Origin: Candidatus Paceibacter sp.
GTDB taxonomy: Bacteria > Patescibacteriota > Patescibacteriia > SG8-24 > DYFX01
Reading direction: 5' to 3'
DNA: 45,808 bases
Assembly: GCA_020724945.1 (NCBI GenBank)
Contig: DYFX01000002.1
Location: 1 to 45,808, forward strand
Shown: in pieces, positions 2,510 through 17,139 of the stretch
Layout: every line of letters begins with the position of its first letter
Position numbering within the stretch: the first letter of the stretch is position 1
Program-made: the position numbers and the translations under genes
The notes under the pieces: model-generated
The model's input: the letters and a program-made list of their open reading frames with translations, nothing else
Told to the model about the DNA's origin: nothing
The model's database searches: none

Positions 2510-2584
2510 GGCCTCATCGTCTAACGGCTAGGACAGCTCCCTTTCACGGAGCAGATAGGGGTTCGATTCCCCTTGGGGCTACCA
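2510..2584 (+). tRNA. tRNA-Glu (anticodon UUC)
   Basis: Manual cloverleaf: acceptor GGCCTCA/TGGGGCT (with G1.U72 and U5.G68 wobbles); D arm GTCTAACGGCTAGGAC; anticodon stem GCTCC/GGAGC with loop CTTTCAC; T arm AGGGG-TTCGATT-CCCCT; encoded CCA. Confidence 0.85.
2562..2584 (+). repeat. Direct repeat copy 1 (tRNA-Glu 3' end; att-like)
   Basis: ttcgattccccttggggctacca is identical to 10209-10231. Its last 9-10 nt recur at 17096-17105. Confidence 0.9.
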
Positions 2585-2586
2585 TG

Positions 2587-2615
2587 AAAAACTCCCGTTA
2601 ACGCGGGAGTTTTTC
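2587..2615 (+). terminator. Intrinsic terminator after tRNA-Glu
   Basis: Stem actcccg/cgggagt followed by TTTTT (2610-2614). Confidence 0.7.
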
Positions 2616-2630
2616 GTTCGCATGAGTGGC

Positions 2631-2676
2631 GCTGGGTGCCTGCTGGCTGACTTTCTTGGACAGCAGGCTCCCAGCG
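2631..2676. repeat. Palindromic (REP-like) element; its right arm is the left copy of a 24-bp inverted repeat
   Basis: gctgggtgcctgctg (2631-2645) pairs with cagcaggctcccagc (2661-2675), 15 bp with 1 mismatch. Segment 2653-2676 is the reverse complement of 10066-10089 (23/24). Confidence 0.85.
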
Positions 2677-2719
2677 TAGGGTGACGATTCGGCGTTCACT
2701 ATCATCGATACTGCCTTAT

Positions 2720-3718
2720 TCAGCGGCCTCTCCCCAAGGGGAAAGTCGCACTCACGCCAGCGGCCTTTCCGGATATGTTCATTGTCAGAGCGCCCAGTCC
2801 CGCTCCTGCAATGACCCCGCCCACTGCTGCGGCGACGACGGCCGTGGCGGCAGCCTCGACGCCATAGGAAAATTCCGGCGGAACGAATGCGCGTCCGGCG
2901 CCGTACAGGATCGCTGACCACACGAAGCCCGCCAACGCGCCTTTTAGCCAAGCGGGCCATCGGCTCGTCATGTCCACCGCGAGTGCGGCAGCCATGACCG
3001 AGAAAACGACGAGCCAGCCCGGCGGGTGCGGATGGGGCGGAACGAGCGATGCGTTCCCGAACTGCTCGCCGAAGGTCATGGCTTGCAGCAGGAGCGAGGC
3101 GGCGGCGATCGTCATGGCGGCTCCGGGGCCCGGCATCATCCGGATCCCGACCAGGAGAATGAGCGCGAATGCCGCAGCCTGCGGAGCGGTTCCCCAAAAC
3201 CCAAGCATGTGCCACGGACCGGTCGGCAGGAAGGGCGCCAAGGGGAACATCGCCAGCTCAAGCGCGGCGGCGAGTCCCATCCCCATGAACAGGTGCTTCG
3301 AGACAGGGTCAGGATCCCGGGCAAGGATCGGAAGAAGCATCAGGAGTCCGCCCAGGAGCGCGCCGATCAGGACGAGATGCGGCGGACTCCAGACGATGAT
3401 GGGGCTGCCGATCGATTCGACTCCGAAGGCGCGGTGCCAAAGCTCGTCGAATGGCGCGGAAGCCGGAACAAGAAGCAGCACGATCGCGAGCCTCTTCCAT
3501 AAGGAAGACCGATGCTGCCACCAGCCGATGACGGCGCCGAGCACCGCCGTCATCGTCGAGGCGTACAGGAGGATGTGAGGCGGGGACCAGAAACTCTCTC
3601 GTCCGATGACGCCGTGCCACCAGGCGTCCCAAGCTCCGGCCATGACGGATACGAACAACGCACCCGTCACGAGTCGGGCCAACAGATGCTCAGCACGCAA
3701 GCGCGATAAGACGCCCAT
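2720..3718 (-). CDS. Polytopic membrane protein of unknown function with repeated W-H ... S-P-P-H motifs
   Basis: 332-aa ORF, hydrophobic throughout. Internal repeat AWDAWWHGVIGRESFWSPPH / FDELWHRAFGVESIG..WSPPH. It is the last gene of the efflux operon, 22 nt after the RND gene. Confidence 0.7.
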   Translation of the reverse strand: MGVLSRLRAEHLLARLVTGALFVSVMAGAWDAWWHGVIGRESFWSPPHILLYASTMTAVLGAVIGWWQHRSSLWKRLAIVLLLVPASAPFDELWHRAFGVESIGSPIIVWSPPHLVLIGALLGGLLMLLPILARDPDPVSKHLFMGMGLAAALELAMFPLAPFLPTGPWHMLGFWGTAPQAAAFALILLVGIRMMPGPGAAMTIAAASLLLQAMTFGEQFGNASLVPPHPHPPGWLVVFSVMAAALAVDMTSRWPAWLKGALAGFVWSAILYGAGRAFVPPEFSYGVEAAATAVVAAAVGGVIAGAGLGALTMNISGKAAGVSATFPLGRGR

Positions 3719-3740
3719 ACGTCATTGGTTACTGCTTCCA

Positions 3741-6700
3741 TTAGACATCCACCGGACCGGACGCGGCAAGAGCCGCCTTCCTCCCGAACCGATAGAACAA
3801 GGCCGGCGTCATGAAGAGCGAGATGAGCGTCGAGGACGTCAGGCCGCCGAAGATGACCACCGCGAGCGGGTGCAGCATCTCCTTTCCGGGCGCGTCGCCG
3901 GCGAGCAGGAGCGGGACGAGCGCGAGCGAGGCCGTCAGCGCCGTCATCAATACGGGAACGACGCGGTCGAGCGTCGCTTTGAGCACGGTGTCCGGCGCGA
4001 ACGGCAGCCCTTCCTTGCGGACGAGGTTCAACGAGTGGCTGATGAGCATGATGCCGTTCCGCGAGACGATGCCGGCCAGCGAGACGAACCCTACGAGATG
4101 CGCCAGGCTGACCACGCCGCCGGTCAGCCAGATGCCGATCATGCCCCCGATGAAGGCCGTGGGGACGTTCAGCATGATCTGGAGGACGGTCGGCGTCGAA
4201 CGGAAGCCGTGATACAGGACCAGGAAGATCAAGAGGAGTCCTGCCAAGAAAAGTCCCGCCAAACGGCGGCTGTTCTCTTTCTGGCTCTTGTACGTCCCCT
4301 CGAACGAGGCGGCCACGCCTTCAGGCAGTCGGCCCTTCGTCTCGATCGTACGGCGGACGGACTCCACGGCCCCGACGATATCGCGGCCCTGGTAGTTCGC
4401 GCTGACGACCAGCACGCGGCGGCCTCCCTCATGGCTCAAGCGGTTGCGACCCGATTCAAGCCGCACGTCCGCGACGTTTCCGAGCGCATCCGCGCCCTCG
4501 AACGGCAGGGATAGGTCCCGCAAGGCCTGGGCGTTTCCACGCGACATGAGGTCGTATCTCGCGACGACGTCGACGCGGGCGCTGCCGAGCTGTACCTGAC
4601 CGACCGGCGCTCCCAGGAGTCCCATTTCGAGTTCCTCGGCGACTTCTCCGCTCGAAAGGCCGAGGTCGGCCAGACGGTTGCGATCGGGATAGATGCGGAA
4701 TTCCGGCACGAGCACCTCGCGCTGGATCTGGGCGTTCTTCACGCCATCGCGTTTGGCCAACTCGTCCCTGACGGCGCTCGCCGCCTGTCGGAGCGCAGGA
4801 AGGTCATCGCCGAAGAGCTTGACGACGATCGGCGCGCGGATGCCGGAGAGCAACTCTTCCAGCTTGTGGGTGATGGGCTGACCGAGGCTGAAATCCGCTT
4901 CGGTGAAGGCGTCCAGGACGCGCTGGATCTCGCCGAACAGCCGTTCGCGCTCTTTTTCGAGACCCGGTTCGAAGGCGACCTGGATCTCGCTCGAGTTCGC
5001 CCCGCTGTCGTGCGCGTCCGCGCCGGCGCGGCCGGTCGAGTGACTCGCCCGCCGAACGCCTGGGACCTTCCGAATCGCCTCTTCCACCTTCGAGGCATAC
5101 GCGTTCGAGGTCTCGACGTCCGTGCCGACTGGCATGACCGCGCTGATCGTGACCGATCCTTCGTTGAAGGGCGGGACGCCCTCCTTGCCGGCGACGGCAT
5201 ACAAACCGGCGGCCGCGACGATCGTCAGGGCGACGGCGGCCATGAGCGGTTTCGGATTGGCGATGCTCCATCGGATCGGCGGCGTCATCTTCCGCTTCAG
5301 CCAGCACACAAAACGCGTCTCTTCTTCGTGACTCTTGGTGTTCGGCTTGGTCAGGAGGATGGCGCACAGCGCCGGTGTCAGCGTCAGCGACACCACCATC
5401 GAAGCGACGAGTGAGACGAGGTAGGCCAAGCCGAGAGGCGCCAGCAGTTTTCCCTCGACGCCGGGGATGAAGAACATCGGCAGGAAGACGATGGCCACGA
5501 CGACGGTGGCGTAGACGATCGAGTTCCGCACCTCGCTCGAAGCGCGGAAGATGATCTCGTCGGGCGATTCTTTCATGCCGCCCTGACGCCATTCCCGCAG
5601 ACGGCGGAAGACGTTCTCGACGTCGACGATCGCGTCATCGACAAGCTCGCCGATCGCGACGGCCAGGCCACCCAGCGTCATGACGTTGACGGACAAGTCC
5701 ATCGCCCGGAAGACGATGGCCGTCACCAGGAGGCTGAGCGGGATCGCCGTGAGCGTGATGATCGTCGTCCTCACGTTCATCAGGAAAAGGATCAGGATGA
5801 CGATGACGAGCAAGATGCCGATGAGGAGCGCCTCGATCACGTTATCCAGGCCCGCTTCGATGAACCATTCCTGACGGAAGAGATCGTTCTTGAGCTCGGT
5901 GCCGGCGGGCAAGCTGGCGTGAAGCGATTCGAGCGCTTCGTCGACCGCCTCGGTCACCGCCAGCGTTTCCGCGTCCGGCTGCTTCACGATGCGCATGATG
6001 ACGCCGGGCTTGCCGTCGATCGTCGCCGAACCGCGAACCGGGCTGGGCCCTTCGATGAGGGCTGCGACGTCGCCCAAACGGATCGGCTGGCCGTCGAAGC
6101 TGCCGATACCAAGCTGTTCAAGTTCGCTCACTTCCGATGGGGCGAGCATGATGCGGATCGGGTATTCTTTCCGATTCTGGACGAGAATGCCGCCTCCGCG
6201 GTTCTTGAGCGACCCCTCGACCTGCGTGACGATGTCCTCGATGCGCAGATCGAATCTGCGCATCCTCTCGGCGTTCATGCTGATCTGCCATTCGCGCACG
6301 TCGCCGCCCATGACGATGACGTCGGAGACGCCCGGCACGCGCAAGAGGGCGGGCCGGATCGTCCAATCCGCGACAGTACGAAGGCGCATCCCGTCGATCG
6401 ACGGGTCGGTGGCCGTGAGGCCGGCCCACATGATCTCGCCCATGATCGAGGCGACGGGACCGAGCACCGGCTTCACGTCTTCCGGAAGGTCGAGCTGGGC
6501 CAGGCGCTCCTGGATGATCTGTCGGTTGCGATAGAGATCCGAGCCCCATTTGAATTCCGCCTGGACGATGGCCAGACCGAACGAGGCCGTGCCTCGCACG
6601 CGTTCGACGCCGGGCGCGCCGGCGACGGCCGCCTCAATCGGCGTCAGGATCAGGCGCTCGATCTCCTCGGGCGCGAGGCCTTCTCCTTCCGCGAAGACGG

Positions 6701-6842
6701 CCACGGTCGGCTTGTTGACGTCGGGCAAGACGTCGACTTTCATGCCCGCAAGGCTCCAAACGCCGAGGACGGCAATCAGGAGCGAAAGCGTCAAGGTGGC
6801 GATCCTGTGGCGGATCGCCCAGATGATGATCTTGTTGAGCAT
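3741..6842 (-). CDS. Heavy-metal efflux RND transporter (CusA/CzcA family)
   Basis: 1033 aa. N-terminus MLNKIIIWAIRHR...VDVLPDVNKPTV and TM4 motif AIGELVDDAIVDVEN are typical of HME-RND pumps. Length and 12-TM layout fit. Confidence 0.9.
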   Translation of the reverse strand: MLNKIIIWAIRHRIATLTLSLLIAVLGVWSLAGMKVDVLPDVNKPTVAVFAEGEGLAPEEIERLILTPIEAAVAGAPGVERVRGTASFGLAIVQAEFKWGSDLYRNRQIIQERLAQLDLPEDVKPVLGPVASIMGEIMWAGLTATDPSIDGMRLRTVADWTIRPALLRVPGVSDVIVMGGDVREWQISMNAERMRRFDLRIEDIVTQVEGSLKNRGGGILVQNRKEYPIRIMLAPSEVSELEQLGIGSFDGQPIRLGDVAALIEGPSPVRGSATIDGKPGVIMRIVKQPDAETLAVTEAVDEALESLHASLPAGTELKNDLFRQEWFIEAGLDNVIEALLIGILLVIVILILFLMNVRTTIITLTAIPLSLLVTAIVFRAMDLSVNVMTLGGLAVAIGELVDDAIVDVENVFRRLREWRQGGMKESPDEIIFRASSEVRNSIVYATVVVAIVFLPMFFIPGVEGKLLAPLGLAYLVSLVASMVVSLTLTPALCAILLTKPNTKSHEEETRFVCWLKRKMTPPIRWSIANPKPLMAAVALTIVAAAGLYAVAGKEGVPPFNEGSVTISAVMPVGTDVETSNAYASKVEEAIRKVPGVRRASHSTGRAGADAHDSGANSSEIQVAFEPGLEKERERLFGEIQRVLDAFTEADFSLGQPITHKLEELLSGIRAPIVVKLFGDDLPALRQAASAVRDELAKRDGVKNAQIQREVLVPEFRIYPDRNRLADLGLSSGEVAEELEMGLLGAPVGQVQLGSARVDVVARYDLMSRGNAQALRDLSLPFEGADALGNVADVRLESGRNRLSHEGGRRVLVVSANYQGRDIVGAVESVRRTIETKGRLPEGVAASFEGTYKSQKENSRRLAGLFLAGLLLIFLVLYHGFRSTPTVLQIMLNVPTAFIGGMIGIWLTGGVVSLAHLVGFVSLAGIVSRNGIMLISHSLNLVRKEGLPFAPDTVLKATLDRVVPVLMTALTASLALVPLLLAGDAPGKEMLHPLAVVIFGGLTSSTLISLFMTPALFYRFGRKAALAASGPVDV

Positions 6843-6853
6843 ACGGTCATCGG

Positions 6854-8593
6854 CTATTCGCCGTGCGAGTGACCGTGACCGTCTCCGCCTTCCGCAGGCT
6901 CCCCCGTCTTCTCCGCTCCGCCCGCAGGAGCGTTGACGGATTGCCCGGTCTTCAAGCCTCCCGCGGCGGTCGCGACGTAGCGGTCCCCGTTCTGGAGCCC
7001 TTCAAGCGCTTCGATGCGGTCGCCGACGGTCCGACCGATGAGGATGGGCTGGGGGCGGATCACGCCGTTCTCCATGACGAGCCAGACGTTTGCCGTGCCT
7101 TGATCATCCTTCCACACGGCTCCCAGGGGGACGAGGACGGACGTCGAGCCGACGGCGTCGGGCACGACGCGCACGGACGCATGGACCGGCCAGTCGGTCG
7201 GGAACAGGAATTCGGCGTCTGCGGCGTACGAACCGTTCTCATCGAGCGCCGTGCCGACGCCGACGACCTTCGCTTTGACGCCCGCGAAGGAACGTCCGGG
7301 ACGCTCGATCGTGACCAAGTCGCCGACCGAAGGAGGCGTCAGGTCGCTCGGGATCCTGAAGCGCACGAATGCCTGGGCATCGCCTGCCGCGCCGATCGCG
7401 GCGAGGAGATCCTCCGGCGTCACGTGATCGCCGACGTTCTTGTGGATCGCCGAGACGATTCCCGAGCGCGGCGCGATGATGTTCTGGCCGGCCACCCCGG
7501 AGACGATGGCTCCGTAGGCCGCCTCCGCGCCCTCGACGTCCGCTCGGGCTTCGGCCAGATCGCGTTCGAGTTCAGCGATTTTCGCGTCGATCTCCGATTT
7601 CTGCACGGCGATCTCCTTGTCAGTCTCGACCGCAATCTTCGGCAGTTCGGAAGCCTTCGATTTCCCGGCCGCGACGGCAGCATGGTATTCGTCGAGCGCG
7701 TCCAGGAACGCTTCCTGATCCTCAATGGCATCATTACGAAGATCGGACAGGCTCTCTTCGGTCATGTCTCCGATCGCGGCGCTGTTCGACAAGAGGCCTT
7801 GCAGGGCTTTCGCGTAGGACATGCCTTCTTTTTCCGGGATCGCGGCTGGATCCCTGAGCGCGTCCAGCAGCGCGGTCAAGTCGCTGCGATACCCGTTCTG
7901 CGCGGACTCGCTATAGATGCCGATGCCCCATTTGAACTGGAGCGTGGCTACAGCCTGCCCGTTGCTCGGACTCGTCCCGTTGCGCGAAAGGAGGCCCGGC
8001 GTCCGATACGCGAGCCGCTCAAGGGAGGAATGCAAGGCCTGGCGTTTCAGGGGGACGACCGCCGCCGCCTGCTCGGCTTCTATGGCCGATGTCGCGATGG
8101 AAGCATCACGCGAATTCTCGAAGGTCGCCTTGAGCTGTGCCAGACGGGCCGTCGACTCGCGGACGAGTTTTTCCGCCGCCTCCGCCGCAGCGCGCGCTTT
8201 GACGAGCGCCTGCGCCCTTTCGGCGAGCGCGCTCGCCAATTCAAGATTCGCCGGCGGCGCCGCAAGGCGACCGAGCACTTGTCCAGCGTAGACGCGTTGA
8301 CCGAGCCTGACGCGCCATTCGGAGATCTGCCCCTCGCGCGAGGGGTGGACCGAGACGTCCGAGAGGGAGAGGATCTCTCCGGACCAGGAGGCATTCGAAC
8401 CGGCCAGGATCCCCAGCCCGCCGTCGGAAGCCGTCTCCACCGGCACGCTCGTCGCCGTCGCGACGGCCTCCGTTTCCGAATGGCCGGCGGCTTCTTCATG
8501 TCCTGGTCCCGCGAAGGCCGAGCGCAAAGCCACGCCCCCAAGGATGACCGCCAGCCCGATGCCGGCGGCCATCACCTTATGTTTGAGATGCAT
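6854..8593 (-). CDS. Efflux RND periplasmic adaptor (HlyD/MFP family) with long helical insert and His-rich C-terminal tail
   Basis: 579 aa. Lipoyl-like segment VHPSREGQISEWRVRLGQRVYAGQVLGRL. C-terminus EGGDGHGHSHGE. Lies directly upstream of the RND gene. Confidence 0.8.
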   Translation of the reverse strand: MHLKHKVMAAGIGLAVILGGVALRSAFAGPGHEEAAGHSETEAVATATSVPVETASDGGLGILAGSNASWSGEILSLSDVSVHPSREGQISEWRVRLGQRVYAGQVLGRLAAPPANLELASALAERAQALVKARAAAEAAEKLVRESTARLAQLKATFENSRDASIATSAIEAEQAAAVVPLKRQALHSSLERLAYRTPGLLSRNGTSPSNGQAVATLQFKWGIGIYSESAQNGYRSDLTALLDALRDPAAIPEKEGMSYAKALQGLLSNSAAIGDMTEESLSDLRNDAIEDQEAFLDALDEYHAAVAAGKSKASELPKIAVETDKEIAVQKSEIDAKIAELERDLAEARADVEGAEAAYGAIVSGVAGQNIIAPRSGIVSAIHKNVGDHVTPEDLLAAIGAAGDAQAFVRFRIPSDLTPPSVGDLVTIERPGRSFAGVKAKVVGVGTALDENGSYAADAEFLFPTDWPVHASVRVVPDAVGSTSVLVPLGAVWKDDQGTANVWLVMENGVIRPQPILIGRTVGDRIEALEGLQNGDRYVATAAGGLKTGQSVNAPAGGAEKTGEPAEGGDGHGHSHGE

Positions 8594-8602
8594 AATGGAC
8601 GA

Positions 8603-9523
8603 TCAGTTGTGCGAGCCTGGCATCGCCCCGCCGGAACCGCCGACATCGTTGACGTCCACCGTGATCGGGAGCGTGCGCACCTCGCCCTTAATCTTGAACT
8701 GGGCATAGAGCGTATAGCGGCCCTTCGACGGGAACGTGGCGTCGAACTCCACGCGACCGTCCGTCGGCTTCGATTCGGTGACGGGGTGGACGTGGAAGAA
8801 GTCGTCGACGTCGTTGTGGCGAAGCAGGACGACATGCCCGAATGCGCCGAGATACGGATCGATGTCTGCGACTGGCTTGCCCTCTTCGGTCAGGGCGAAC
8901 GTCAGACGCGTCTCTTGGTTCGTGCGCAATGCGCCATCGATCGCCAAAGCGGCGCGATAGTTCCCGTTCATCGCCGAGCGGTCGGCATTCGGTTCAGGGA
9001 AAGCTTTCGATGGCGTCGGGCTGCCGATCGCCAGGGGCACCCGAAGGACGACGGGCTTCTCCTCTTCCGGCTCGATATCGACATACATCTGGTACTGACC
9101 CGCTTCGGACACCTTGGCAGAGACCGTCCATTTGCCGTCCGCGTACTCCGGATGGAGATGCTGGAAGCCGGTCATGTCGTCCCGGACGAGCAGGAAATGC
9201 ATCTTCTTCTCGTGGGTGATCTTGAGATCGTTCGGACCGAACTCGTGCCCATCGAGCCCGTATAGCTTGAAGCGCAGGGCGACGTCGCCCGGCTTCAACC
9301 CGCTTTTGTTGTCGAGCGCGATCCGTGATCCAGCCGCCACGGCCAGGTGTTCGGCGTCGGCACCGTGCCCGGCATCCGCTTCTGCGGCCCCCGCAGCCGC
9401 GTTGCCGCCCATCTGCTGCGCGACAGGCACCTTCCCAGGTACATCAGAAGTCGGGGTCGAGCCGGCGCAGCCGGCGCCGATAAGGACGAGGACTGATGCG
9501 ATTGCCACTACGCGATACTGCAT
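8603..9523 (-). CDS. Lipoprotein with two tandem beta-rich domains carrying conserved H..HP motifs (putative periplasmic metal-binding protein)
   Basis: Track ORF 8603..9571. I prefer the start at MQYRVVAIASVLVLIGAGC (ATG at 9523), which gives a lipobox. Repeated motif KKMHFLLVRDDMTGFQHLHP / FGHVVLLRHNDVDDFFHVHP. Confidence 0.7.
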   Translation of the reverse strand: MQYRVVAIASVLVLIGAGCAGSTPTSDVPGKVPVAQQMGGNAAAGAAEADAGHGADAEHLAVAAGSRIALDNKSGLKPGDVALRFKLYGLDGHEFGPNDLKITHEKKMHFLLVRDDMTGFQHLHPEYADGKWTVSAKVSEAGQYQMYVDIEPEEEKPVVLRVPLAIGSPTPSKAFPEPNADRSAMNGNYRAALAIDGALRTNQETRLTFALTEEGKPVADIDPYLGAFGHVVLLRHNDVDDFFHVHPVTESKPTDGRVEFDATFPSKGRYTLYAQFKIKGEVRTLPITVDVNDVGGSGGAMPGSHN

Positions 9524-9589
9524 ATGAGATTCTAGTGGATAATTGGATAACTCAAAAAGACGCGAGAACACGCTCGCGTCATCAACGTC

Positions 9590-9931
9590 TCAACACCTCA
9601 TCACGAGAGAGTCTTGTGCCGAAGTCGGCGGCGGTATCCGACTCGGTTTCACGAACGCCAGGGATGTGGATGCGAGATCAGGCGCCGTCAGGTTGGCGGG
9701 AAGTATCGCCAGCAGCTGATGATCCTGCAGTGCGCGGTGCGTCGATGAACCTTGGACGGCGGCCTCGATGCTGTCACCGCAATGGTCCGTATCGACGTGC
9801 TGATTGACGCCGATCCTCGCATCATGTCCGTGGGCGGCTTCGCCGAAATGCGGAATGCAAAAGGAAAAGCCGGCGACGGCGAACACCGCGATGACGAGGG
9901 GGGCGGCGTAATGGCTAAACGACTTGCTCAT
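9590..9931 (-). CDS. Small His-rich membrane-anchored protein, first gene of the efflux operon
   Basis: 113-aa ORF with an N-terminal TM (APLVIAVFAVAGFSFC) followed by HFGEAAHGHD...HVDTDHCGD. No family recognised. Confidence 0.5.
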   Translation of the reverse strand: MSKSFSHYAAPLVIAVFAVAGFSFCIPHFGEAAHGHDARIGVNQHVDTDHCGDSIEAAVQGSSTHRALQDHQLLAILPANLTAPDLASTSLAFVKPSRIPPPTSAQDSLVMRC

Positions 9932-10065
9932 TACGGGTCATCTTAGAATCAATGCGTCGGGACGACAAGCGGTCGGTCCTGACGTGTCAATAGCTGTAAC
10001 GCAGGGACTCTGTCTCTGAAACCTCACCACCGCATGTTCGTCTCAACCGCCACCACACCCCACGC

Positions 10066-10089
10066 CGCTGGGAGCCCGCTGTCCAAGAA
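10066..10089. repeat. Right copy of the 24-bp inverted repeat bracketing the efflux operon
   Basis: cgctgggagcccgctgtccaagaa is the reverse complement of 2653-2676 with one mismatch. It sits in the loop of a larger hairpin (10050-10064 / 10099-10113). Confidence 0.85.
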
Positions 10090-10202
10090 TTGTTATCTCG
10101 TGGGATGTGGTGGCCGGTCCTGTCCGAATGCGAATGGGTGATTTCTTAGCGAGAATTCGCGCTGAAATCACCCTTCCCCGCCTTACGCTTCGGGACCCTC
10201 AA

Positions 10203-11726
10203 TCAGGTTTCGATTCCCCTTGGGGCTACCAAAAGGGACTCTTCCGCAAGAAGAGTCTCTTTTAGTTGGAAGATTGGCGACAATTCCGTAGTTCCAAAAT
10301 TTTCTCCATCGAACGGTATCTTGTTCTTGAAAATCAACTGCTGGAACTGAACGCGCGCCTGGGGGTTGCTTTCAAGTTCCAGCCAGGTTTTTGTCGCCTT
10401 GCCCACAAATTCGAAGCAATACCCCAACGCCTGCTCCATATTGAATTCGTCGTTTCGATGATCCTCTATCAATACATACTGCTCATCCAATTGCCGACCG
10501 ATGACGGATTTCTGTTCCTTAAAATCCTCGTCTGAGTAAACGCCCGATCGGTGCAGTTCAAACACTCGCTGCCTATCCAGTTCTAATTTCTCAATCGCTC
10601 TCCTGACAGAGGCTCTTTGAGCGTCTAGGTGCTTGTGCCTCGTTTTCCAGATATCAATGACAACTGCCTTAAACAGCTTTTCGAACTTTGGGTTGGGCGT
10701 GATTTTTTCTAACCGCTCCAAGAACGCTCGTTCAAATTTTTCTTTCGCAATAGACCTCGATTTTGAACAACCCTTCTTTGAGTGGTGGTAATAGGGGTAT
10801 TTCTTGCCCTTGTAACCGCGCGTGGCGCTACCCGACAGGGGTGTGCCGCATTCAGAACAGACAACAAATTTTCTCAAAGGGAATGTCGGGTTCTCCGCCG
10901 TTCTCCGTTTTGACCAACTCGAGTATCCGGGCTTTACCTGACAGGCTAAGAACAGCTGGCGCGGAACTATTGGTTCAAAGCCTCCAGCCCATTCTCCTCC
11001 GAATGCCTTAATGACGCCGCAGTAGACTGGATTAATGAGCATCTTTTGGACCTCCTGGTGTTTGATGGGTTTCCCACGCCGCGTACGCAGACCCTGACGC
11101 GTCCAGAAGGCAGCCAGGGCCTTGTAGGTGCGCCCTCCCTTGGCGTACTCCTCAAAACCAGCCCTTACGAGCGGGGCCTTAACTGGATCGGGAACGATAT
11201 TGGTCTTTTTGCCCCGCATCGGTTTGTAGTAACCAAGCGGGGGCGTCCAAACCCAATACCCTTCCCGTACTCGTTGAATCATCCCGCCTCGCGTCCTTTC
11301 TGTCCGTACATTGTTGTCGAATTCAGCGAATCCGGCGATAACTGTCTCCATTAACCTTCCGGTTGCGGTTTCATTTATCGGCTCTGTAACTGAACGCAGA
11401 GCCGTACCGACCTTGTTCAAGACGGCGCGGACCGTCAAATGATCTTCTGCCTTCCGACTAAAACGATCGAGTTTGTAAACAAGGAATATGCCGATGCGCC
11501 CTTTCTTTGCGGTGCAGTAATTGATCGCCTTGGTGAACTCGGTTCTGTCGGAAGTCTTTGCTGATTCACCCAACTCCACAAACACCTCGGCCACCTCCCA
11601 GTCTTGCTTACCTGCGTATTCCCGACACAGTTTTTCTTGGGTCTCCAAGCTAGTTCCTTCAACCTGCTCTTTCGAAGAAACTCGGCAATAAATTACGCAC
11701 GTCGCCTTGGTCGGAATTTGATTCAT
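10203..11726 (-). CDS. Large serine recombinase (resolvase/invertase N-domain + recombinase domain + zinc ribbon)
   Basis: 507 aa. Catalytic segment VIYCRVSSKEQ, then LVYKLDRFSR and a Cys-rich ribbon CSECGTPLSG...YYHH. The last 9 codons run into the tRNA-derived repeat. Confidence 0.9.
   Translation of the reverse strand: MNQIPTKATCVIYCRVSSKEQVEGTSLETQEKLCREYAGKQDWEVAEVFVELGESAKTSDRTEFTKAINYCTAKKGRIGIFLVYKLDRFSRKAEDHLTVRAVLNKVGTALRSVTEPINETATGRLMETVIAGFAEFDNNVRTERTRGGMIQRVREGYWVWTPPLGYYKPMRGKKTNIVPDPVKAPLVRAGFEEYAKGGRTYKALAAFWTRQGLRTRRGKPIKHQEVQKMLINPVYCGVIKAFGGEWAGGFEPIVPRQLFLACQVKPGYSSWSKRRTAENPTFPLRKFVVCSECGTPLSGSATRGYKGKKYPYYHHSKKGCSKSRSIAKEKFERAFLERLEKITPNPKFEKLFKAVVIDIWKTRHKHLDAQRASVRRAIEKLELDRQRVFELHRSGVYSDEDFKEQKSVIGRQLDEQYVLIEDHRNDEFNMEQALGYCFEFVGKATKTWLELESNPQARVQFQQLIFKNKIPFDGENFGTTELSPIFQLKETLLAEESLLVAPRGIET
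10209..10231 (+). repeat. Direct repeat copy 2 (orphan tRNA-Glu 3' fragment; attL-like for the low-GC element)
   Basis: 23/23 identity to 2562-2584. The sequence upstream of it is not tRNA-like. Confidence 0.9.
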
Positions 11727-11742
11727 ACAGCCTTACTTTACC

Positions 11743-12024
11743 TTACTTGGTTGCCGGAAACTGAACCCCAAGGGGATTTTTGGAACTACCAGCTCTATCC
11801 ATCCCCCACGCATCAACTGCCATCCGCCCAAGATCATAGAGAGCCGCCAAAACTGGCTCCAGTTCACAATCCTTGAGATCAGAGAGGGAAGGGTCAATTT
11901 TCCTTGCCTGGTCGGGCGTGAGCATCTGAACGAAAAAATCGAGAATTCGCATTCCCAACACAATAAGGACGAACTGTGTTGGAAATTGGCGATTTCCCGA
12001 AGTTCTGGGTTCAGACAGGCTCAC
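11743..12024 (-). CDS. Small hypothetical protein upstream of the recombinase (possible accessory or directionality factor)
   Basis: 93-aa ORF with a GTG start in the track; internal ATG starts are possible. It ends 16 nt before the recombinase start. No motif recognised. Confidence 0.35.
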   Translation of the reverse strand: MSLSEPRTSGNRQFPTQFVLIVLGMRILDFFVQMLTPDQARKIDPSLSDLKDCELEPVLAALYDLGRMAVDAWGMDRAGSSKNPLGVQFPATK

Positions 12025-12110
12025 GCTATGCGCATTCGCCCATCCAAGTATTCAGTTGTGATGTCAGTATGAATGGAGGCGAGAAACCCTGCAAGTGATC
12101 GGTTTTTTCA

Positions 12111-12150
12111 CCCAAATCCATCCAAATCCAGACAATTCCAGACAATATCC
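12111..12150. repeat. Four 10-bp phased units (2 x YCCAAATCCA, 2 x GACAATWYCM)
   Basis: cccaaatcca|tccaaatcca|gacaattcca|gacaatatcc, read directly from the sequence, in the divergent intergenic region. Confidence 0.7.
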
Positions 12151-12166
12151 CCATATAACCCAATAC

Positions 12167-12227
12167 TTTTTCCCACCATTTCCCACCCACTGCCCCACTC
12201 CGCCATTCCACCTTTTTCCACCATTTC
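12167..12227. repeat. Direct repeat TTTTTCC(C)ACCATTTC x2, enclosing a C-run/G-run quadruplex-type motif
   Basis: Copies at 12167-12182 and 12213-12227. C3-N7-C3-N1-C3-N4-C4 at 12172-12196, which is a G4 motif on the minus strand. Confidence 0.6.
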
Positions 12228-12265
12228 TGTTTCCATTAGTTTCCAATACCTCGCGCCTTAAAATA

Positions 12266-12293
12266 TTGTCATTTCGGTTAATCCTGCTAAGCT
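12266..12293 (+). promoter_or_regulatory. Candidate promoter for the structured leader / cargo operon
   Basis: TTGTCA (12266-12271), 16-nt spacer, TAAGCT (12288-12293). The predicted start lies at the 5' closing helix of the structured RNA. Confidence 0.4.
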
Positions 12294-12296
12294 AGC

Positions 12297-12478
12297 AGCA
12301 CAACTGAATGCCTAACCCCTGCAATCACCGCAGGGTATGGCAATAAACCCGACCAAGGCACTAACCCCGTCGTTAGCAAGCCTTGGTCGGTCGTATCCCG
12401 AAAGGGGTACGTTGGGCGAAAGCCCACAAGCTAGCGGCGGGTTTTGTGCTAAAACGCCGCGCCTAACCGACCAAGGCT
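12297..12478 (+). ncRNA. Candidate structured cis-regulatory RNA (riboswitch-like or attenuator-like leader), family not recognised
   Basis: Five local hairpins, two of them capped by GAAA tetraloops (12393-12410, 12413-12426). Long-range pairing 12297-12303/12444-12450. The 11-nt segment gccttggtcgg (12380-12390) can pair with either of two identical ccgaccaaggc copies (12349-12359 or 12467-12477); the latter abuts the ATG at 12479. Confidence 0.5.
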
Positions 12479-12808
12479 ATGAAAATCTATTTGTGGTTCC
12501 TGAGCCATTCTAAACAAACCAGAACGCTTATAATCCTCTCCGTTGCACTCCATCTACTAAACGCCATTCTAGGGCCACTGGAAGGCCGCAGGACGCTCTC
12601 GGCACTCGTAGGGCGTATCCTGGGTGGGTTCATTGGCACGTTCACCCCCGTCTTATTGAGCTCAATGATTATCGCGTTCCTGCCCTATATGGTTTTTCGC
12701 AGCGTCGCTGAGAAATACAAGCGATATTTGGACTATCTCTCAGTTATCCTTTTCCTTGTCACAATTTTGTTGGGTTGGGCTAGGATACGCTTGGTGGCAG
12801 GGGTGTAG
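12479..12808 (+). CDS. Small three-TM membrane protein, unknown function
   Basis: 109-aa ORF with three hydrophobic helices. AT-rich codon usage matches the island. It is followed by hairpin atggcga/tcgccat (12837-12859). Confidence 0.55.
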   Translation: MKIYLWFLSHSKQTRTLIILSVALHLLNAILGPLEGRRTLSALVGRILGGFIGTFTPVLLSSMIIAFLPYMVFRSVAEKYKRYLDYLSVILFLVTILLGWARIRLVAGV

Positions 12809-12876
12809 TAAATTACATATAAGCCATACTATGTTGATGGCGATGCTCAGCGTCGCCATTTCTATATAATCAGCAA

Positions 12877-15800
12877 ATGTCGGAAAAGTACCCATACAAA
12901 AAAAGCCAGCTGAAACGGCTTGGGCAAGCCGCGAAGTTAGCTGGTCCTAGATATACGCCTGAGCTTAATGTTGGCGTAGGAATCAGTTCAATTTTCGAAG
13001 GTCTGGGCAGGACCGAGAAATTTTATACCGAACTTAAGAAATCACTGCCCGATCTTGTCAGGCACATCCAGTACGTATCAAAACCCGAGATTGATATTGT
13101 GGCACACGATGAGCTTGTGGCAACCACCACGACGGCTCAGAAAGTGGCGGATTTACTTCTGCGAGTACCCGTTAGCGGAGTTAATAAAATCGATTCAGCG
13201 ACTCTTCATAAGCTCTGCGATTCTGGGATGACCCTAGTTAGAAACCTGATCTCGGTCCTACAAAAAGACGAGAGGGTTTCAAACGAACCGGGATCGAAGG
13301 ACCCAAACGGCACTAAACAGCAAAGTGAAAAGCACAGGTCTCACATCCACGATCTTTGGAAGATTTTTGATGCCCTGCATTCAATTTCGGTTTTCGTTGA
13401 GAGCTTGGTCGTACAAGCAGCAAATTCTCCCCAAGTTTTGCTCACGGGTGCCGCTGGTTCCGGCAAAACACACTTTCTTTGTGATCTAGCTAAGAAAAGA
13501 ATTGAGGCTGGATTTCCAACATATATTTTTCTTGGTGAGGAGTTTTCAGAATCCAGAAAGCCACTTAATACAGTAAAAAAGTTACTTGGATTCAAGGGGG
13601 GTGACGGTGCGTTTCTTGAATCAATTAATCGGTATGCCGCAAGCAAGCGTGTTCGGGCCGTGATCATCATTGATGCAATCAATGAGGCGCAAATCCGTGG
13701 AATTCGTTGGGATCAGCTCTGCAAGGTCAACCAATACAATAACCTCGCGGTTATTATCAGTGTAAGAACGGGCTTCGAGCAGCAGGAAGTGCCAAAAAAA
13801 ATTCTTGATGGTTTTTTAAAAGTTACCCATCGTGGATTCGTGGGGAACGAGTGGGAAGCTTATGCAAAGTTCTTTTCTAAGTCCGGTCTTCCGCTCCCAG
13901 AAACCCCGCTTCTTACACCCGAATTCCATAACCCGCTTTTCCTTAAAATATACTGTTCCGCCGCATCTAAAGCTCCGAACCCAGTCAGGGGCAACTACGG
14001 TTTCAGGTATATATTTGAGAAGTATGTTATTGCACAAGGAGAAGGTGTTCTTAAACAACTCGGTGAACCAGGTCAAAGTAATAGGCGAGTCTGGGATGGT
14101 GTTATCAAGGAAATCGCTCTAGAAATGGGTGACAGCGGGTTAGATAGACTCCACCAAAAACGAACGACTTCTATCGTTGCGAAACAATTCCCTGGTAAGG
14201 CAAGGGATGCGATCGTGGCACTGGAAAAACAGTTTCTGCTTATTAAAGTGCCTCGTTATAGGAGATACAAAATAGTGGGGTACGACTACAGATTCCCTTA
14301 CGAAAAGTTTAGCGACCACCTGATAGTACGCGCACTAATTAATAAATACCTTGATAAGACAAACCCGAAGAAATCACTGATTCCTGGTACAAAGCTTGGA
14401 GAAATCATTCGACGAGATCGGAATTACGGCTTGATCGAAGCCCTCGCAATTCAAATTCCACAAGACCTGAAGGGTCGAGAGTTGGTATATGTCGCACCAA
14501 AAAAATTCCGCTTCCAGAGCTACGCAAGAAATTCTTTCTTGGAAAGTTTGATTTGGCGCGATTTGTCAACACGTTCAAACGGGCAACACAAGTTCATTAA
14601 AACCAAACTGGTTCTAGATTTTATTAATAAATATCTACTTCCATTTGAACGAGGAAAGGAGAGCGTTTTGGAAGTGCTTCTTACTGTTGCTGCGGTTCCA
14701 GAGCATCCTCTGAACGCGCACATTTTGCATAAGCATCTATTGCGTATGCCTATGCCGAAGCGCGATGCATACTGGCTGCCATTTATCAATGAACGCTATG
14801 CCAACGAAAGCATCTTTGATAGGTACCTGGCTTGGGCGTGGTATGGCGGCGATAAAACAAAGATATCGGAAGAATCGGTGGGTTTGGCAGCAACGGTATT
14901 ATCGTGGTGCTTAGCAAGCTCAAATCGCTTTCTGAGAGATCGTGCCACGAAGGCCTTGGTATCAATACTCTACTCAAGACCGGAGGTTTTGTTACGTCTA
15001 TTGAAACGCTTTGAGTTGGTGGATGACCCATACATACAGGAGCGTCTTTTCGCAGTAACTTATGGCTGCATTCTTCAGGTTGGTGTACCGAGAGCAGGTG
15101 TTTTGCAGCTGGCCCACTACACATATGAGCGTATTTTCAAAAAGGGTGCGCCGCCCAAACATATTCTTTGGCGCGATTATGCAAGAAATATTGTCGAAAC
15201 AGCTGCCGCTATCGATCCAGCCTTTGAAGGCAAGGTTGATTTAAGAATGGTCCGCCCACCATATCGAAGTAGATTTCCTACGAAGGTTCCATCTACTGCG
15301 GTACTTAAAAAGAAATATTACCGTGATTATCGCAAAAATAAATCAAGGAGGGGCGATTACAACCAGATATGGTTTTCTTTGATGTATAACAATGGAGGGT
15401 CTATCGCGGATTTCGGGAATTACATTGTGAACTCAACCGTCGGTAATTGGTGCAATTTGCGTCTGAAAAAGAATGGGCAGCCCCCAAAATTTCCAAAGCA
15501 AATCTCAAAGGAGTTCGAAGAAAGTCTTGATGAGTTTTCTAAAAAAATTTGGGCGAGACTTGAAGAGGCTCGTCAATCTATAGCTACGCGAAGATTGTTT
15601 GAAGACTTACCCGTAAAGCTTGGAACGCCTCCCAAGAAAACTGGGACAAGTAGCAACGATGGAATCGAGATAAAGGCCCGAGAGTTGATTCTAAATGAAC
15701 TTGAGCGCTCATTTATTAATACGCTGGACCCGCACCAGAGGAATTTGTATAGAAAGGGCATTCTGAAAACGCGTGAAGGTCGATGGAATTTAGAGATTGA

Positions 15801-16977
15801 TCGCGCTCTCGTACAAAGAATAATTTTCACGAGGATTATCGAGCTTGGTTGGAATCCGAGACTATTTGATAAGTATGACGGTTCGGTGCGAGAAAGAGGT
15901 AGAGACGCCCATAAAGCTGAGAGAATCGGCAAAAAATATCAATGGATCGCCTTCCACGAAACCCTTGGGTTGATTGCTGACAATTTTGCGTTGCGAGACG
16001 GGTTCAGTGATGAAGGCGGGGGCGATTATCAAGGGGCTTGGCAGATTTGGCGGCGCGATATTGATCCAAGCTATATCGTGCCACCTAGTTTTGCACTGCC
16101 ACCTAAAGCTGTTCGCCCCTGGTGGTCACCCTCAAACTATAGTAGCTGGAGGTTGGGGTTAGGACACACTGAATGGACAAAAATAACTGACGATTTGCCC
16201 CAACAAAGAAAATTGCTTGAAATCAAAACAAACGGTGGGTGGTTGCTGTTAGACGGGTATCTCGGTTGGGATCAGCCGACCGCTCCGGGCATAGATCGAT
16301 ATGATGCTATACGCCGAAATGTCTGGTATCACATACACAGTTATCTAATCAAAGCCGATAAAGTAGGTGAGATTTTGGATTGGGCTAAAAAACAGAATTT
16401 TCTGGGGAGATGGGTGCCAGAGCCTCTGGAGCTGAGAGATGTTTTCATTCGAGAGATACCGAATGGTTTCCCCTATCAACACCAATATGGTACCGCGAAA
16501 GATGTTGGATGGCGCAAAGTCACAGAAAAGGTTGGGAGGGAAGAGGTATTTGAAGTTATTGTAGCCGCCGAGGAATACCATTGGGAGGGTGGTGGTTTTG
16601 ACTGCTCACTCAACGATGGCGTAATGATTCGGGTTCCCTGTAAGGAGATTGTTTCCGGAATGAACTTATCGCAAAGCCAACGGCTAGGTACCTTTGTTAA
16701 TGCAAATGGAGATGAAATTATCCAAGATGTCGCCGCCGAAAGTGTTGAGAAAAGCGCCCTGCTAATTAAAAAACGACCGTTCTTGAAGTTTCTTGAGGAG
16801 AATGGCTACGCATTGCTTTGGATTACTTTTGGAGAAAAATTGTTACTAGGGACGGCTGGAGGTGGTCAAGGATTTTTAGGACGACTGGAGGTCGGCGGCG
16901 CACACATACTTTCGAGCGAAGGGCGAATCTTTAGCCACGAGTACACTAACTGGTCACCACCCCACACCAAAGGTTGA
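12877..16977 (+). CDS. 1366-aa STAND/NACHT-like P-loop NTPase with HEAT-like repeats and unassigned N- and C-terminal domains
   Basis: Walker A GAAGSGKT (aa 191-198, nt 13447-13470). Walker B AVIIIDAINE (aa 261-270, nt 13657-13686). Downstream strand AVIISVRT. NACHT-like HNPLFLKIYC (nt 13927-13956). HEAT-like SNRFLRDRATKALVSIL...DDPYIQERLFAV (about nt 14917-15081). Confidence 0.8.
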   Translation: MSEKYPYKKSQLKRLGQAAKLAGPRYTPELNVGVGISSIFEGLGRTEKFYTELKKSLPDLVRHIQYVSKPEIDIVAHDELVATTTTAQKVADLLLRVPVSGVNKIDSATLHKLCDSGMTLVRNLISVLQKDERVSNEPGSKDPNGTKQQSEKHRSHIHDLWKIFDALHSISVFVESLVVQAANSPQVLLTGAAGSGKTHFLCDLAKKRIEAGFPTYIFLGEEFSESRKPLNTVKKLLGFKGGDGAFLESINRYAASKRVRAVIIIDAINEAQIRGIRWDQLCKVNQYNNLAVIISVRTGFEQQEVPKKILDGFLKVTHRGFVGNEWEAYAKFFSKSGLPLPETPLLTPEFHNPLFLKIYCSAASKAPNPVRGNYGFRYIFEKYVIAQGEGVLKQLGEPGQSNRRVWDGVIKEIALEMGDSGLDRLHQKRTTSIVAKQFPGKARDAIVALEKQFLLIKVPRYRRYKIVGYDYRFPYEKFSDHLIVRALINKYLDKTNPKKSLIPGTKLGEIIRRDRNYGLIEALAIQIPQDLKGRELVYVAPKKFRFQSYARNSFLESLIWRDLSTRSNGQHKFIKTKLVLDFINKYLLPFERGKESVLEVLLTVAAVPEHPLNAHILHKHLLRMPMPKRDAYWLPFINERYANESIFDRYLAWAWYGGDKTKISEESVGLAATVLSWCLASSNRFLRDRATKALVSILYSRPEVLLRLLKRFELVDDPYIQERLFAVTYGCILQVGVPRAGVLQLAHYTYERIFKKGAPPKHILWRDYARNIVETAAAIDPAFEGKVDLRMVRPPYRSRFPTKVPSTAVLKKKYYRDYRKNKSRRGDYNQIWFSLMYNNGGSIADFGNYIVNSTVGNWCNLRLKKNGQPPKFPKQISKEFEESLDEFSKKIWARLEEARQSIATRRLFEDLPVKLGTPPKKTGTSSNDGIEIKARELILNELERSFINTLDPHQRNLYRKGILKTREGRWNLEIDRALVQRIIFTRIIELGWNPRLFDKYDGSVRERGRDAHKAERIGKKYQWIAFHETLGLIADNFALRDGFSDEGGGDYQGAWQIWRRDIDPSYIVPPSFALPPKAVRPWWSPSNYSSWRLGLGHTEWTKITDDLPQQRKLLEIKTNGGWLLLDGYLGWDQPTAPGIDRYDAIRRNVWYHIHSYLIKADKVGEILDWAKKQNFLGRWVPEPLELRDVFIREIPNGFPYQHQYGTAKDVGWRKVTEKVGREEVFEVIVAAEEYHWEGGGFDCSLNDGVMIRVPCKEIVSGMNLSQSQRLGTFVNANGDEIIQDVAAESVEKSALLIKKRPFLKFLEENGYALLWITFGEKLLLGTAGGGQGFLGRLEVGGAHILSSEGRIFSHEYTNWSPPHTKG

Positions 16978-17095
16978 TTCCACTCCCCCGTGGCAGTCTC
17001 TTATCCAGCCACGGTTGAGGCTCCCCGCAAATCCCTTGCAAACGCCGCCCACGCCTTAAGGTCCGCCACGATTTCGTTCCAGATTTCAGTGGTCC

Positions 17096-17105
17096 GGGCT
17101 ACCAT
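17096..17105 (+). repeat. Direct repeat copy 3 (short; attR-like junction)
   Basis: gggctaccat matches 2576-2585, i.e. the tRNA 3' end plus its first flanking base. It is immediately followed by a host-style terminator. Confidence 0.55.
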
Positions 17106-17110
17106 CGAGA

Positions 17111-17139
17111 ACACCGCTTCACCGGCGGTGTTTTCGTTT
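17111..17139 (+). terminator. Intrinsic terminator, probably the ancestral tRNA-Glu terminator
   Basis: Stem acaccgc/gcggtgt (17111-17117/17125-17131) followed by TTTTCGTTT. Confidence 0.6.

Follow-up and report, generated by a model that had tools for sequence, protein, structure and literature searches.

The 45,808-nt stretch analysed here (the window; Candidatus Paceibacter sp., GenBank assembly GCA_020724945.1, contig DYFX01000002.1, positions 1 to 45,808 of the forward strand) carries at 10232-17104 what is very probably a cassette-type integrative element. It would belong to a family found mainly in Patescibacteria, in which a large serine recombinase targeting tRNA-Glu and a backbone led by the LOOT RNA (Rfam RF03000) are combined with exchangeable cargo, in this case the STAND NTPase Avs2. 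Our verdict is that the element consists of known parts in an uncharacterized element family and provides a first functional lead for LOOT. An original prediction, made from the sequence before any database was searched, had proposed an undescribed defence module whose combination of parts matched no system that could be named. That claim of novelty did not survive: the NTPase is assigned to Avs2 (1109 bits in PADLOC) and the RNA is the catalogued LOOT. Since the defence gene is Avs2, the locus is not one to pursue as a new defence system. What remains new is an effector-less Avs2 on a minimal cassette, LOOT as a marker of recombinase elements in the Candidate Phyla Radiation (CPR; Patescibacteria), and LOOT as a putative cis-acting leader.

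An integrative element with a shared backbone and exchangeable cargo

Composition delimits the element sharply. Its 6,873 bp have a GC content of 47.2%, against 64.0% in the left flank (2585-10205) and 67.3% in the right flank (17106 to the end), and a sliding GC profile drops to 0.42-0.51, from 0.58-0.67, over the stretch from about 10200 to about 17000, bearing out the predicted abrupt switch to AT-rich sequence near 10232 and back by 17105. The sequence repeated at both edges is the 3' end of the tRNA-Glu(UUC) gene at 2510-2584. At the left edge, 2559-2584 recurs at 10206-10231 as a 26-nt direct repeat with one mismatch (25/26; the exact part is the 23 nt of 10209-10231), and at the right edge the sequence common to tRNA-Glu is GGGCTACCA(T) alone, at 17096-17105. 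The 9-mer GGGCTACCA, which forms the last 9 nt of tRNA-Glu, occurs as three exact copies in the window (2576, 10223 and 17096, all on the plus strand) against 0.14 expected by chance, and a hairpin with a T-run comes after each of them. It is the only identity between attL and attR, and this core lies exactly at both composition boundaries. The original prediction had seen the tRNA-Glu copies at the edges (10209-10231 on the left, 17096-17105 on the right) and had overlooked the tRNA gene itself, 7.6 kb to the left of the element, which adjoins a displaced 3' fragment and not the gene.

The recombinase matches the three Pfam families PF00239 (3e-33), PF07508 (2.7e-13) and PF13408 (5e-08), all above their gathering scores, and the PHROG 95 integrase (1e-90), and it has a serine-containing stretch, YCRVSSKEQ, near its N-terminus; together with the att core, these domains uphold the earlier call of a small integrative element with a large serine recombinase. 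The last 9 recombinase codons and the stop codon run across attL into the flank, where the 507-aa integrated form ends, and on reconstruction of attP the reading frame would extend to 532 aa via 17003-17095, so that in the circular form the right arm would supply the recombinase C-terminus (reconstructed junctions: attP, GTGGTCCGGGCTACCAAAAGGGAC; restored site, CCCCTTGGGGCTACCATCGAGAAC). Among the loci compared (labelled L, with compared proteins labelled P), element DNA begins directly after the tRNA ...ACCA with AAAGGGACT in both the window and L029, where an intact tRNA-Glu has its 3' end at the attL position, and in L003, a more distant relative, the recombinase gene likewise overlaps the tRNA-Glu 3' end. 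That attL and attR share a short core only is as expected for a serine recombinase, and crossover would lie within the 9-bp core. A hairpin at 10237-10257, inside the recombinase coding sequence and with T/A runs on both sides, is arranged alike in L029 and could terminate the tRNA transcript on one strand and the recombinase transcript on the other.

The two divergent units are as originally described, with the recombinase and a 93-aa open reading frame (ORF) on one strand and, on the other, a 109-aa protein with three hydrophobic segments and a 1366-aa P-loop protein. All four reading frames are intact, none of them shortened when set beside its homologues, the element holds no further ORF of at least 85 aa, and no replication, packaging or transfer gene was recognized in it, in agreement with the predicted lack of phage structural, replication and conjugation genes.

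Comparison with L029 separates backbone from cargo. This locus has the order tRNA-Glu(UUC), recombinase, 68-aa ORF, LOOT, membrane-protein gene and TrlF/Ppl-like ATPase (not Avs2), and its recombinase 3' end overlaps the 3' end of a live tRNA-Glu gene. Identity between the two loci reaches 63% for the recombinase, 43% between the small ORF and the 68-aa gene at the equivalent place, about 90% for LOOT, and 54% for the membrane protein, whose closest homologue, P0122, also occupies the equivalent place. By blastn, DNA homology is limited to 10206-12015 and 12300-12738 and stops within the membrane-protein gene. Because L029 keeps the backbone yet carries a TrlF/Ppl-like ATPase, the recombinase, the small ORF and the LOOT-led membrane gene make up the backbone, and the position held by Avs2 is a slot for exchangeable cargo.

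Two backbone proteins have few or no recognizable relatives. The small ORF has no Pfam, PHROG or NCBIfam match and nothing meaningful in PADLOC, and it is a candidate regulator or directionality factor. The membrane protein has no homologue by word-index search, no PADLOC match and nothing meaningful in Pfam, NCBIfam or PHROGs; an exhaustive HMMER search of 1.84 billion representatives returned 23 homologues at E<=1e-3, small proteins that share the motif FRxVAEKYKxYLDY. Between the divergent units, direct repeats at 12109-12248 on the C-rich strand keep an exact 10-bp spacing (CAYCCAAATC twice, TTTCCCACCN twice plus a third copy, and GTTTCCAWTA twice) and are candidate protein-binding sites, and a 14-nt inverted repeat (12050-12063 / 12296-12309) brackets the control region. 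The TTGTCA/TAAGCT pair in this region would be a promoter, though the promoter scan did not list it.

Table 1. Features of the window in and around the element; positions are those of the whole stretch.
Feature	Position	Strand	Details
tRNA-Glu(UUC)	2510-2584	+	ARAGORN; Rfam tRNA 60.1 bits; sole tRNA gene in the window
czc-type resistance-nodulation-division (RND) efflux segment "X"	2585-10205		7.6 kb between tRNA gene and displaced 3' fragment; ACR_tran and HlyD_3 (MFP-type) matches
Large serine recombinase, 507 aa	10203-11726	-	Pfam Resolvase, Recombinase, Zn_ribbon_recom
attL	10206-10231	+	Displaced tRNA-Glu 3'-end copy; closes with core GGGCTACCA at 10223-10231
Small ORF, 93 aa	11743-12024	-	Upstream of recombinase; probably 69 aa from Met25 (11949)
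Divergent control region	12100-12298		10-bp-phased direct repeats; possible -35/-10 TTGTCA 12264-12269, TAAGCT 12280-12285
LOOT RNA	12300-12450	+	Rfam core 12309-12427; 5' box ACAACTGAAT 12300-12309; 3' extension AGCTAGCGGCGGGTTTTGTGCT 12429-12450
Putative expression platform	12434-12477	+	Hairpin GCGGCG...CGCCGC 12434-12460; copy CCGACCAAGGC 12467-12477
Membrane protein, 109 aa	12479-12808	+	Three hydrophobic segments (hydropathy); family motif FRxVAEKYKxYLDY
Terminator-like hairpin	12838-12855	+	Between membrane-protein gene and Avs2; L029 equivalent is a clean hairpin with T-run
Avs2 (AVAST type 2 STAND NTPase), 1366 aa	12877-16977	+	Walker A GAAGSGKT at residues 191-198; no N-terminal effector
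Right arm and attR core	16978-17104	+	59% GC; GGGCTACCA at 17096-17104
Flank right of attR	17105-17139	+	Hairpin with T-run, like the terminator after the tRNA gene (2585-2615)

The element resembles two described kinds of mobile DNA. Staphylococcal cassette chromosome (SCC) type elements (SCCmec, with CcrAB/CcrC) are small cargo cassettes moved by one or more large serine recombinases at the 3' end of one conserved host gene, with exchangeable cargo and no replication or transfer genes of their own, and the window element is alike in all of this. It differs in targeting a tRNA 3' end and not rlmH, in its single recombinase, in its CPR host and in its RNA leader module. CcrB is the best NCBIfam match of the recombinase and scores 122 bits against a cut-off of 900, far too low for the protein to be a Ccr (CcrC, 72 against 900; CcrA, 62.8 against 700). 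Tycheposons and other tRNA-targeting elements of streamlined bacteria integrate at tRNA 3' ends, may use large serine recombinases, carry variable cargo and pile up in tandem at one tRNA. Segment X and the element, stacked beside one tRNA, recall this arrangement; unlike tycheposons as generally known, the element has no replication or packaging module, is much smaller, sits in another host phylum and has a LOOT leader.

The LOOT leader and its associations

The original prediction had noted a highly structured leader of about 180 nt ahead of the membrane-protein gene, and this leader is LOOT. It scores 87.2 bits against RF03000 (gathering score 46.4, E 4.5e-16), covering model positions 1-121 of 121 with all six helices matched, and 12300-12500 folds at -84.2 kcal/mol (z = -5.6) with the LOOT helices forming unprompted. 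In the literature searched, LOOT appears as a "metagenomic-based RNA" of about 43 bp in six helices, from the Weinberg/ZWD alignment, and no function or context for it was found there; Rfam types it as "Gene; sRNA". The window RNA matches the full model and departs from that small RNA (sRNA) typing in preceding ORFs of serine-recombinase elements as their 5' leader. Our analysis adds to the model a 5' box, a 22-nt extension that forms a pseudoknot and, in one subclass, a P2 copy that may sequester the start site.

Covariation supports this fold. When 61 distinct LOOT sequences were aligned, 94.0% of cells were paired, against 77.2% after shuffling and 29-45% after sliding, and 32 of the 44 base pairs change on both sides. 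The GNRA loops and the pseudoknot are conserved. The 22-nt 3' extension pairs with the P2a loop in 99.7% of cases, with C-G/G-C and G-C/U-G exchanges, and RNAalifold extends this pairing into the P2a 5' strand, where it would possibly compete with the P2a hairpin. In L109, whose LOOT was located without the search pattern given below, the extension is quite different (CCGGCGGGGAGC), with complementarity to the P2a 5' strand and loop of the same RNA. The 60 nt upstream of LOOT in the 61 loci contain a conserved box, ACAAYTKAAT, at a distance of 3-25 nt and often 7-10 nt after a TATAAT-like box, and on this ground LOOT probably starts the transcript, with the box as its 5' end. As side observations, the extension (alignment columns 154-175) lies outside the 121-nt Rfam model, which could be lengthened, and some LOOTs have an extra GNRA hairpin between the 5' box and P1. 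A pairing between the 5' box and the 3' tail (7 bp in the window) was set aside, as it is not kept in L029 or L075 by eye.

For a wider survey we derived the pattern AGCTRGCGSSGGGYTTTGTGYT from the 22-nt extension common to the window, L029 and L001. The scan returned 0 viral, 77 metagenome and 36 genome loci, with LOOT immediately 5' of the match in about 72 of the 77 metagenome loci and in 24 of the 36 genome loci, which brings the collection to about 100 LOOT loci. A pattern built on the 5' half (CCTAANCC...GGYATGGCA...CCC) matched 20 viral contigs, none of them LOOT by Rfam, and was dropped. Nearly every genome with LOOT belongs to the Patescibacteria (Saccharibacteria, Parcubacteria, Uhrbacteria, Yanofskybacteria and Lloydbacteria). 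Among the 38 distinct loci with at least 2.5 kb of upstream sequence, a divergent large serine recombinase lies upstream in 24, and a recombinase occurs anywhere in 28; its start is 67-581 nt from LOOT in 13 loci. Downstream, a same-strand ORF begins 1-117 nt past the extension in 55 of the 60 unique metagenome loci, and in 4 of the other 5 the contig ends within about 50-240 nt. Hydrophobic segments are found in 55 of the 71 distinct ORFs that follow LOOT (77%) versus 112 of the 409 other ORFs of the same loci (odds ratio 9.1, Fisher p = 1.6e-15). The Pfam families of these downstream ORFs are mixed and include zinc-ribbon membrane proteins, DUF4352, SNase, trypsin-like domains and DNA methylases. 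At the level of association, then, LOOT marks a family of CPR serine-recombinase elements and is the leader of their rightward gene. In the Saccharibacteria metagenome-assembled genome locus L111 (1140-1293), only the 3' third of LOOT (P3, P4 and the extension) stands within about 35 nt downstream of a tRNA 3' end, with an ORF behind it; this LOOT looks truncated by an integration or deletion event.

In the subclass to which the window LOOT belongs, a stretch just ahead of the start codon of the downstream gene could take part in the fold. The sequence CCGACCAAGGC at 12467-12477, which ends 1 nt before the ATG, is an exact copy of the P2 5' strand (12349-12359), and either of the two can base-pair with the P2 3' strand (12380-12390). 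In L029 the sequence at both places is CCTACCAAGGC, with the matching change in its P2 3' strand. Exact copies of 8-13 nt of a LOOT's own P2 5' strand occur near the start codon in 16 of the 71 distinct LOOTs, 1-7 nt upstream of the start in 14, 11 nt upstream in one and overlapping the ATG in one. By pseudoknot subclass they are found in 13/17 GC, 3/5 GG and 0/49 CG members. The copies comprise 11 different sequences, and cross-locus controls match in 0.6% of 4,662 pairs. Three-way covariation of this kind is characteristic of an expression platform in which the folding state of the upstream RNA determines whether the start region is exposed: because the P2 3' strand can pair alternatively with the exact pre-ATG copy, folding of LOOT may gate the ribosome site. 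The arrangement is like that of riboswitch platforms that sequester the ribosome-binding site, where one strand pairs exclusively with either the aptamer helix or the start region, as the 11 covarying variants suggest here. Unlike the regulons of metabolite riboswitches, the genes downstream of LOOT are functionally heterogeneous, which argues against an ordinary metabolite regulon.

Judged on these sequence patterns, LOOT appears to behave as a cis-acting leader. We weighed against this the view that LOOT works in trans as an sRNA, or as a recombination cofactor that controls, for example, excision or the recombinase mRNA, so that its place before ORFs would be incidental. The Rfam typing agrees with such a role; no other segment is as conserved between the window and L029 as LOOT (about 90%; the recombinase has 63% amino-acid identity), which in many loci also adjoins the promoter region of the recombinase; a compact fold that a protein could bind is suggested by the conserved GNRA loops and pseudoknot; and the CG subclass has no obvious ribosome-site platform. 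This view nevertheless seems rather unlikely to us, given that a same-strand ORF begins shortly after LOOT in 55 of the 60 unique metagenome loci, the contig ending nearby in 4 of the other 5, that, unless translation is controlled in cis, it is difficult to account for P2, the P2 3' strand and the pre-ATG copy covarying three ways in 16 loci, and that LOOT has no variable unpaired loops usable as guides. A more specific proposal, LOOT as a guide RNA of the recombinase, was rejected, as the variable segments pair with each other.

Avs2 without an N-terminal effector

The prediction that the large gene encodes an anti-phage-type STAND ATPase held, and profile matches and sequence alignment to a protein of solved structure assign it to Avs2. 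The PADLOC Avs2 profile PDLC02164 scores 1109 bits (protein residues 13-1360 on profile positions 178-1497 of 1504), and with 1048.6 bits the protein also passes the cut-off of 1000 set for the NCBIfam equivalog NF041813 (residues 22-1347 on positions 4-1312 of 1317). EcAvs2, known from cryo-EM (PDB 9o4e_A), aligns at E 2e-164 in one continuous stretch (residues 16-1350 to chain positions 175-1474 of 1484), with GAAGSGKT facing GKAGIGKS of EcAvs2; Pfam gives weak NACHT/AAA matches at 187-301, and NCBI gives the name Avs2 to similar proteins of 1373-1409 aa. Avs2 senses the phage large terminase through its tetratricopeptide repeats (TPR) and C-terminal sensor, assisted by a helical extension between effector and ATPase (PMC13601566). 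By homology, the TPR and the terminase sensor are predicted to be retained in the window protein, which resembles EcAvs2 (9o4e), KpAvs2 and the Avs2 with trypsin and metallo-beta-lactamase (MBL) domains over the full length of helical extension, STAND ATPase, TPR and C-terminal sensor. Like many Avs genes, it lies on mobile DNA.

Unlike the characterized proteins, the window Avs2 has no N-terminal effector, as had been predicted. Most Avs2 proteins carry an Mrr nuclease, the EcAvs2 effector is an uncharacterized domain of about 175 aa, and other Avs2 proteins have trypsin plus MBL (PMC13601566, PMC11564622, bioRxiv 2026.08.25.746987). The window protein lacks this region of about 175 aa: it starts at the equivalent of EcAvs2 residue ~160-175, about 15 residues ahead of the helical extension, and its Walker A motif is at residue 191 versus about 340 in EcAvs2 and KpAvs2. 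Among the 119 best homologues, Walker A lies at residues 137-250 in 95 and at 300-450 in 24, and the short forms all start 10-25 residues before the conserved motif AGPRYTPxLNV. On this evidence the missing effector is a property of a clade and not a truncation. Membership of Avs2 stands despite it because the NCBIfam model covers the core only, and the architecture is that of a two-part variant. No description of a short-form Avs2 was found in the Avs2 literature searched.

The nearest homologues lie near serine recombinases in L001, L003 and L005 and between a NERD-domain gene and BREX in L150. In this last locus, on a Caldicellulosiruptor chromosome (5186-16122), the short Avs2 comes 170 nt after the NERD-domain gene and just before the BREX operon, and the NERD protein is a candidate effector in trans for the effector-less Avs2.

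The original prediction had joined RNA, membrane protein and NTPase into one three-part module, and a mechanistic version of it would have terminase sensing by Avs2 activate the membrane protein as a killing effector, with the RNA regulating the operon. LOOT, the membrane-protein gene and Avs2 do share one orientation with gaps of 51 nt and 68 nt; the window Avs2 has no fused effector; transmembrane effectors are listed among STAND effector types in a figure legend of PMC13581612; and effectors in trans are conceivable, given the short Avs2 that follows a separate NERD-domain gene in Caldicellulosiruptor. We nevertheless consider a three-part system improbable. The LOOT and membrane-gene unit precedes cargo other than Avs2 in L029, where homology ends within the membrane-protein gene. 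The proposed check, whether homologues of the 1366-aa protein occur with the membrane-protein gene or the leader, came out negative in L001, L003, L005 and L150: none has a gene of this family upstream of its Avs2 homologue or an adjacent LOOT (LOOT was not found in L003, L005 or L150, and in L001 it lies beyond the recombinase, heading another gene). Members of the membrane-protein family occur without Avs2 in L107-L110, and one of them, P0127 in L109, is directly preceded by LOOT (76.7 bits). A terminator-like hairpin separates the two window genes, and PADLOC has no match for the membrane protein. A dedicated partnership of the membrane protein with Avs2 was rejected, since the same LOOT and membrane-gene unit stands ahead of other cargo in L029. 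So was an amyloid-signalling NLR pair: BLASTP between the membrane protein and Avs2 residues 1-191 yielded no match (E 9.9), and the two share no motif.

Flanking DNA, mobility and a working model

Segment X, between the tRNA gene and its displaced 3' fragment, is context outside the element and carries no recombinase. The best named relatives of the CzcA encoded in the flank are from Magasanikbacteria, Uhrbacteria and Patescibacteria, which points to a high-GC CPR bacterium as the host. The last 18 nt of the segment (CGCCTTACGCTTCGGGAC, 10179-10196) resemble the right arm of the element (CGCCTTAAGGTCCGCCAC, 17052-17069), both at a 44-nt offset from a GGGCTACCA core, in a pattern picked after the match had been seen; segment X may be a relative that lacks a recombinase of its own and can be mobilized by the one next to it. 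The four-gene czc cassette recurs in L147 (6942-13507) and L149 (279-13090), with synteny confined to the czc genes, beside tRNA-Val in one and beside a serine-recombinase element with an N6/N4 methylase in the other, which suggests that in these CPR genomes the metal-efflux cassette is itself mobile. To the right of attR, 17105-17139 is probably the original tRNA-Glu terminator or downstream sequence.

We propose the following sequence of events for the window. Segment X would first have parted the tRNA from its old 3' end, and the element would then have used this relic, which still offered the left half-site, the core and the original right half-site. The recombinase would move the cassette into and out of the very 3' end of tRNA-Glu, with crossover in GGGCTACCA. 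The divergent control region would drive both backbone units: leftward the small ORF followed by the recombinase, rightward LOOT as the 5' leader of the membrane-protein gene, ending at the terminator-like hairpin. LOOT would act as an RNA switch that gates translation of the membrane protein through competition between P2 and the pre-ATG copy, with a ligand, a protein, temperature or co-transcriptional kinetics as candidate inputs. Avs2, presumably transcribed separately, would bind the phage large terminase in its TPR/C-terminal sensor pocket and oligomerize through the ATPase, by homology to EcAvs2 and KpAvs2. Downstream of sensing, we favour either direct sequestration of terminase, which would itself block packaging, or an effector acting in trans.

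A more far-reaching combination of two ideas is one that we put forward only tentatively. In its first half, LOOT would be a cis-acting sensor RNA that marks undescribed Patescibacteria serine-recombinase cassettes and gates their first rightward gene, usually one for an envelope protein, by competition between P2 and its copy. In the second, the short Avs2 clade would defend without a fused effector, by locking up terminase or through interchangeable neighbours such as the membrane protein.

Several observations weigh against the reading as a mobile cassette with a LOOT switch and a defensive Avs2. The element adjoins a tRNA fragment instead of the tRNA gene, and an extra event has to be assumed for this reason. 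Crossover is placed by a 9-bp identity. Neither an excised circle nor an empty site was detected, and two other contigs with this Avs2 show the same right junction. About a third of the long-flank LOOT loci have no recombinase by tblastn, which means that LOOT is not strictly tied to recombinase elements, and in L001 LOOT is 2.5 kb from the recombinase. Conservation of the extension is partly by construction in loci collected with the pattern, the independent ones being the window, L001, L029 and L109. The copied-strand platform is absent from the majority CG subclass, and a defensive role for the short-form Avs2 is argued from homology.

Some of the same observations would suit an immobile remnant, a decayed prophage or island with a dead recombinase and att repeats in which Avs2 is a chromosomal gene in a low-GC patch: the circle and empty site were not detected, only a tRNA fragment adjoins the element, and the right-hand repeat is only 9-10 nt. 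This explanation is doubtful in view of the four intact, full-length ORFs, the recombinase with all three of its domains, the core 9-mer exactly at both composition boundaries and the same compact layout in the live tRNA-Glu of L029. In the viral contig set, neither the attP junction nor, by a peptide-pattern method, relatives of the recombinase were found, and a phage or satellite origin therefore receives no support.

Read as a mobile cassette, the element bears on three subjects. It exposes a large Avs2 clade made up of sensor and ATPase with no effector; the mechanistic Avs2 literature searched assumes a fused effector, so that protection by a sensor-only STAND protein becomes directly testable with this gene. 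The orphan LOOT gains its first genomic logic, a place on the cargo side of cassettes where genes for membrane or exported proteins are favoured, with a switch supported by covariation in one subclass. Lastly, the element would represent a minimal cargo shuttle with an exchangeable defence slot in tiny-genome bacteria, whose mobile elements and immunity are poorly known.

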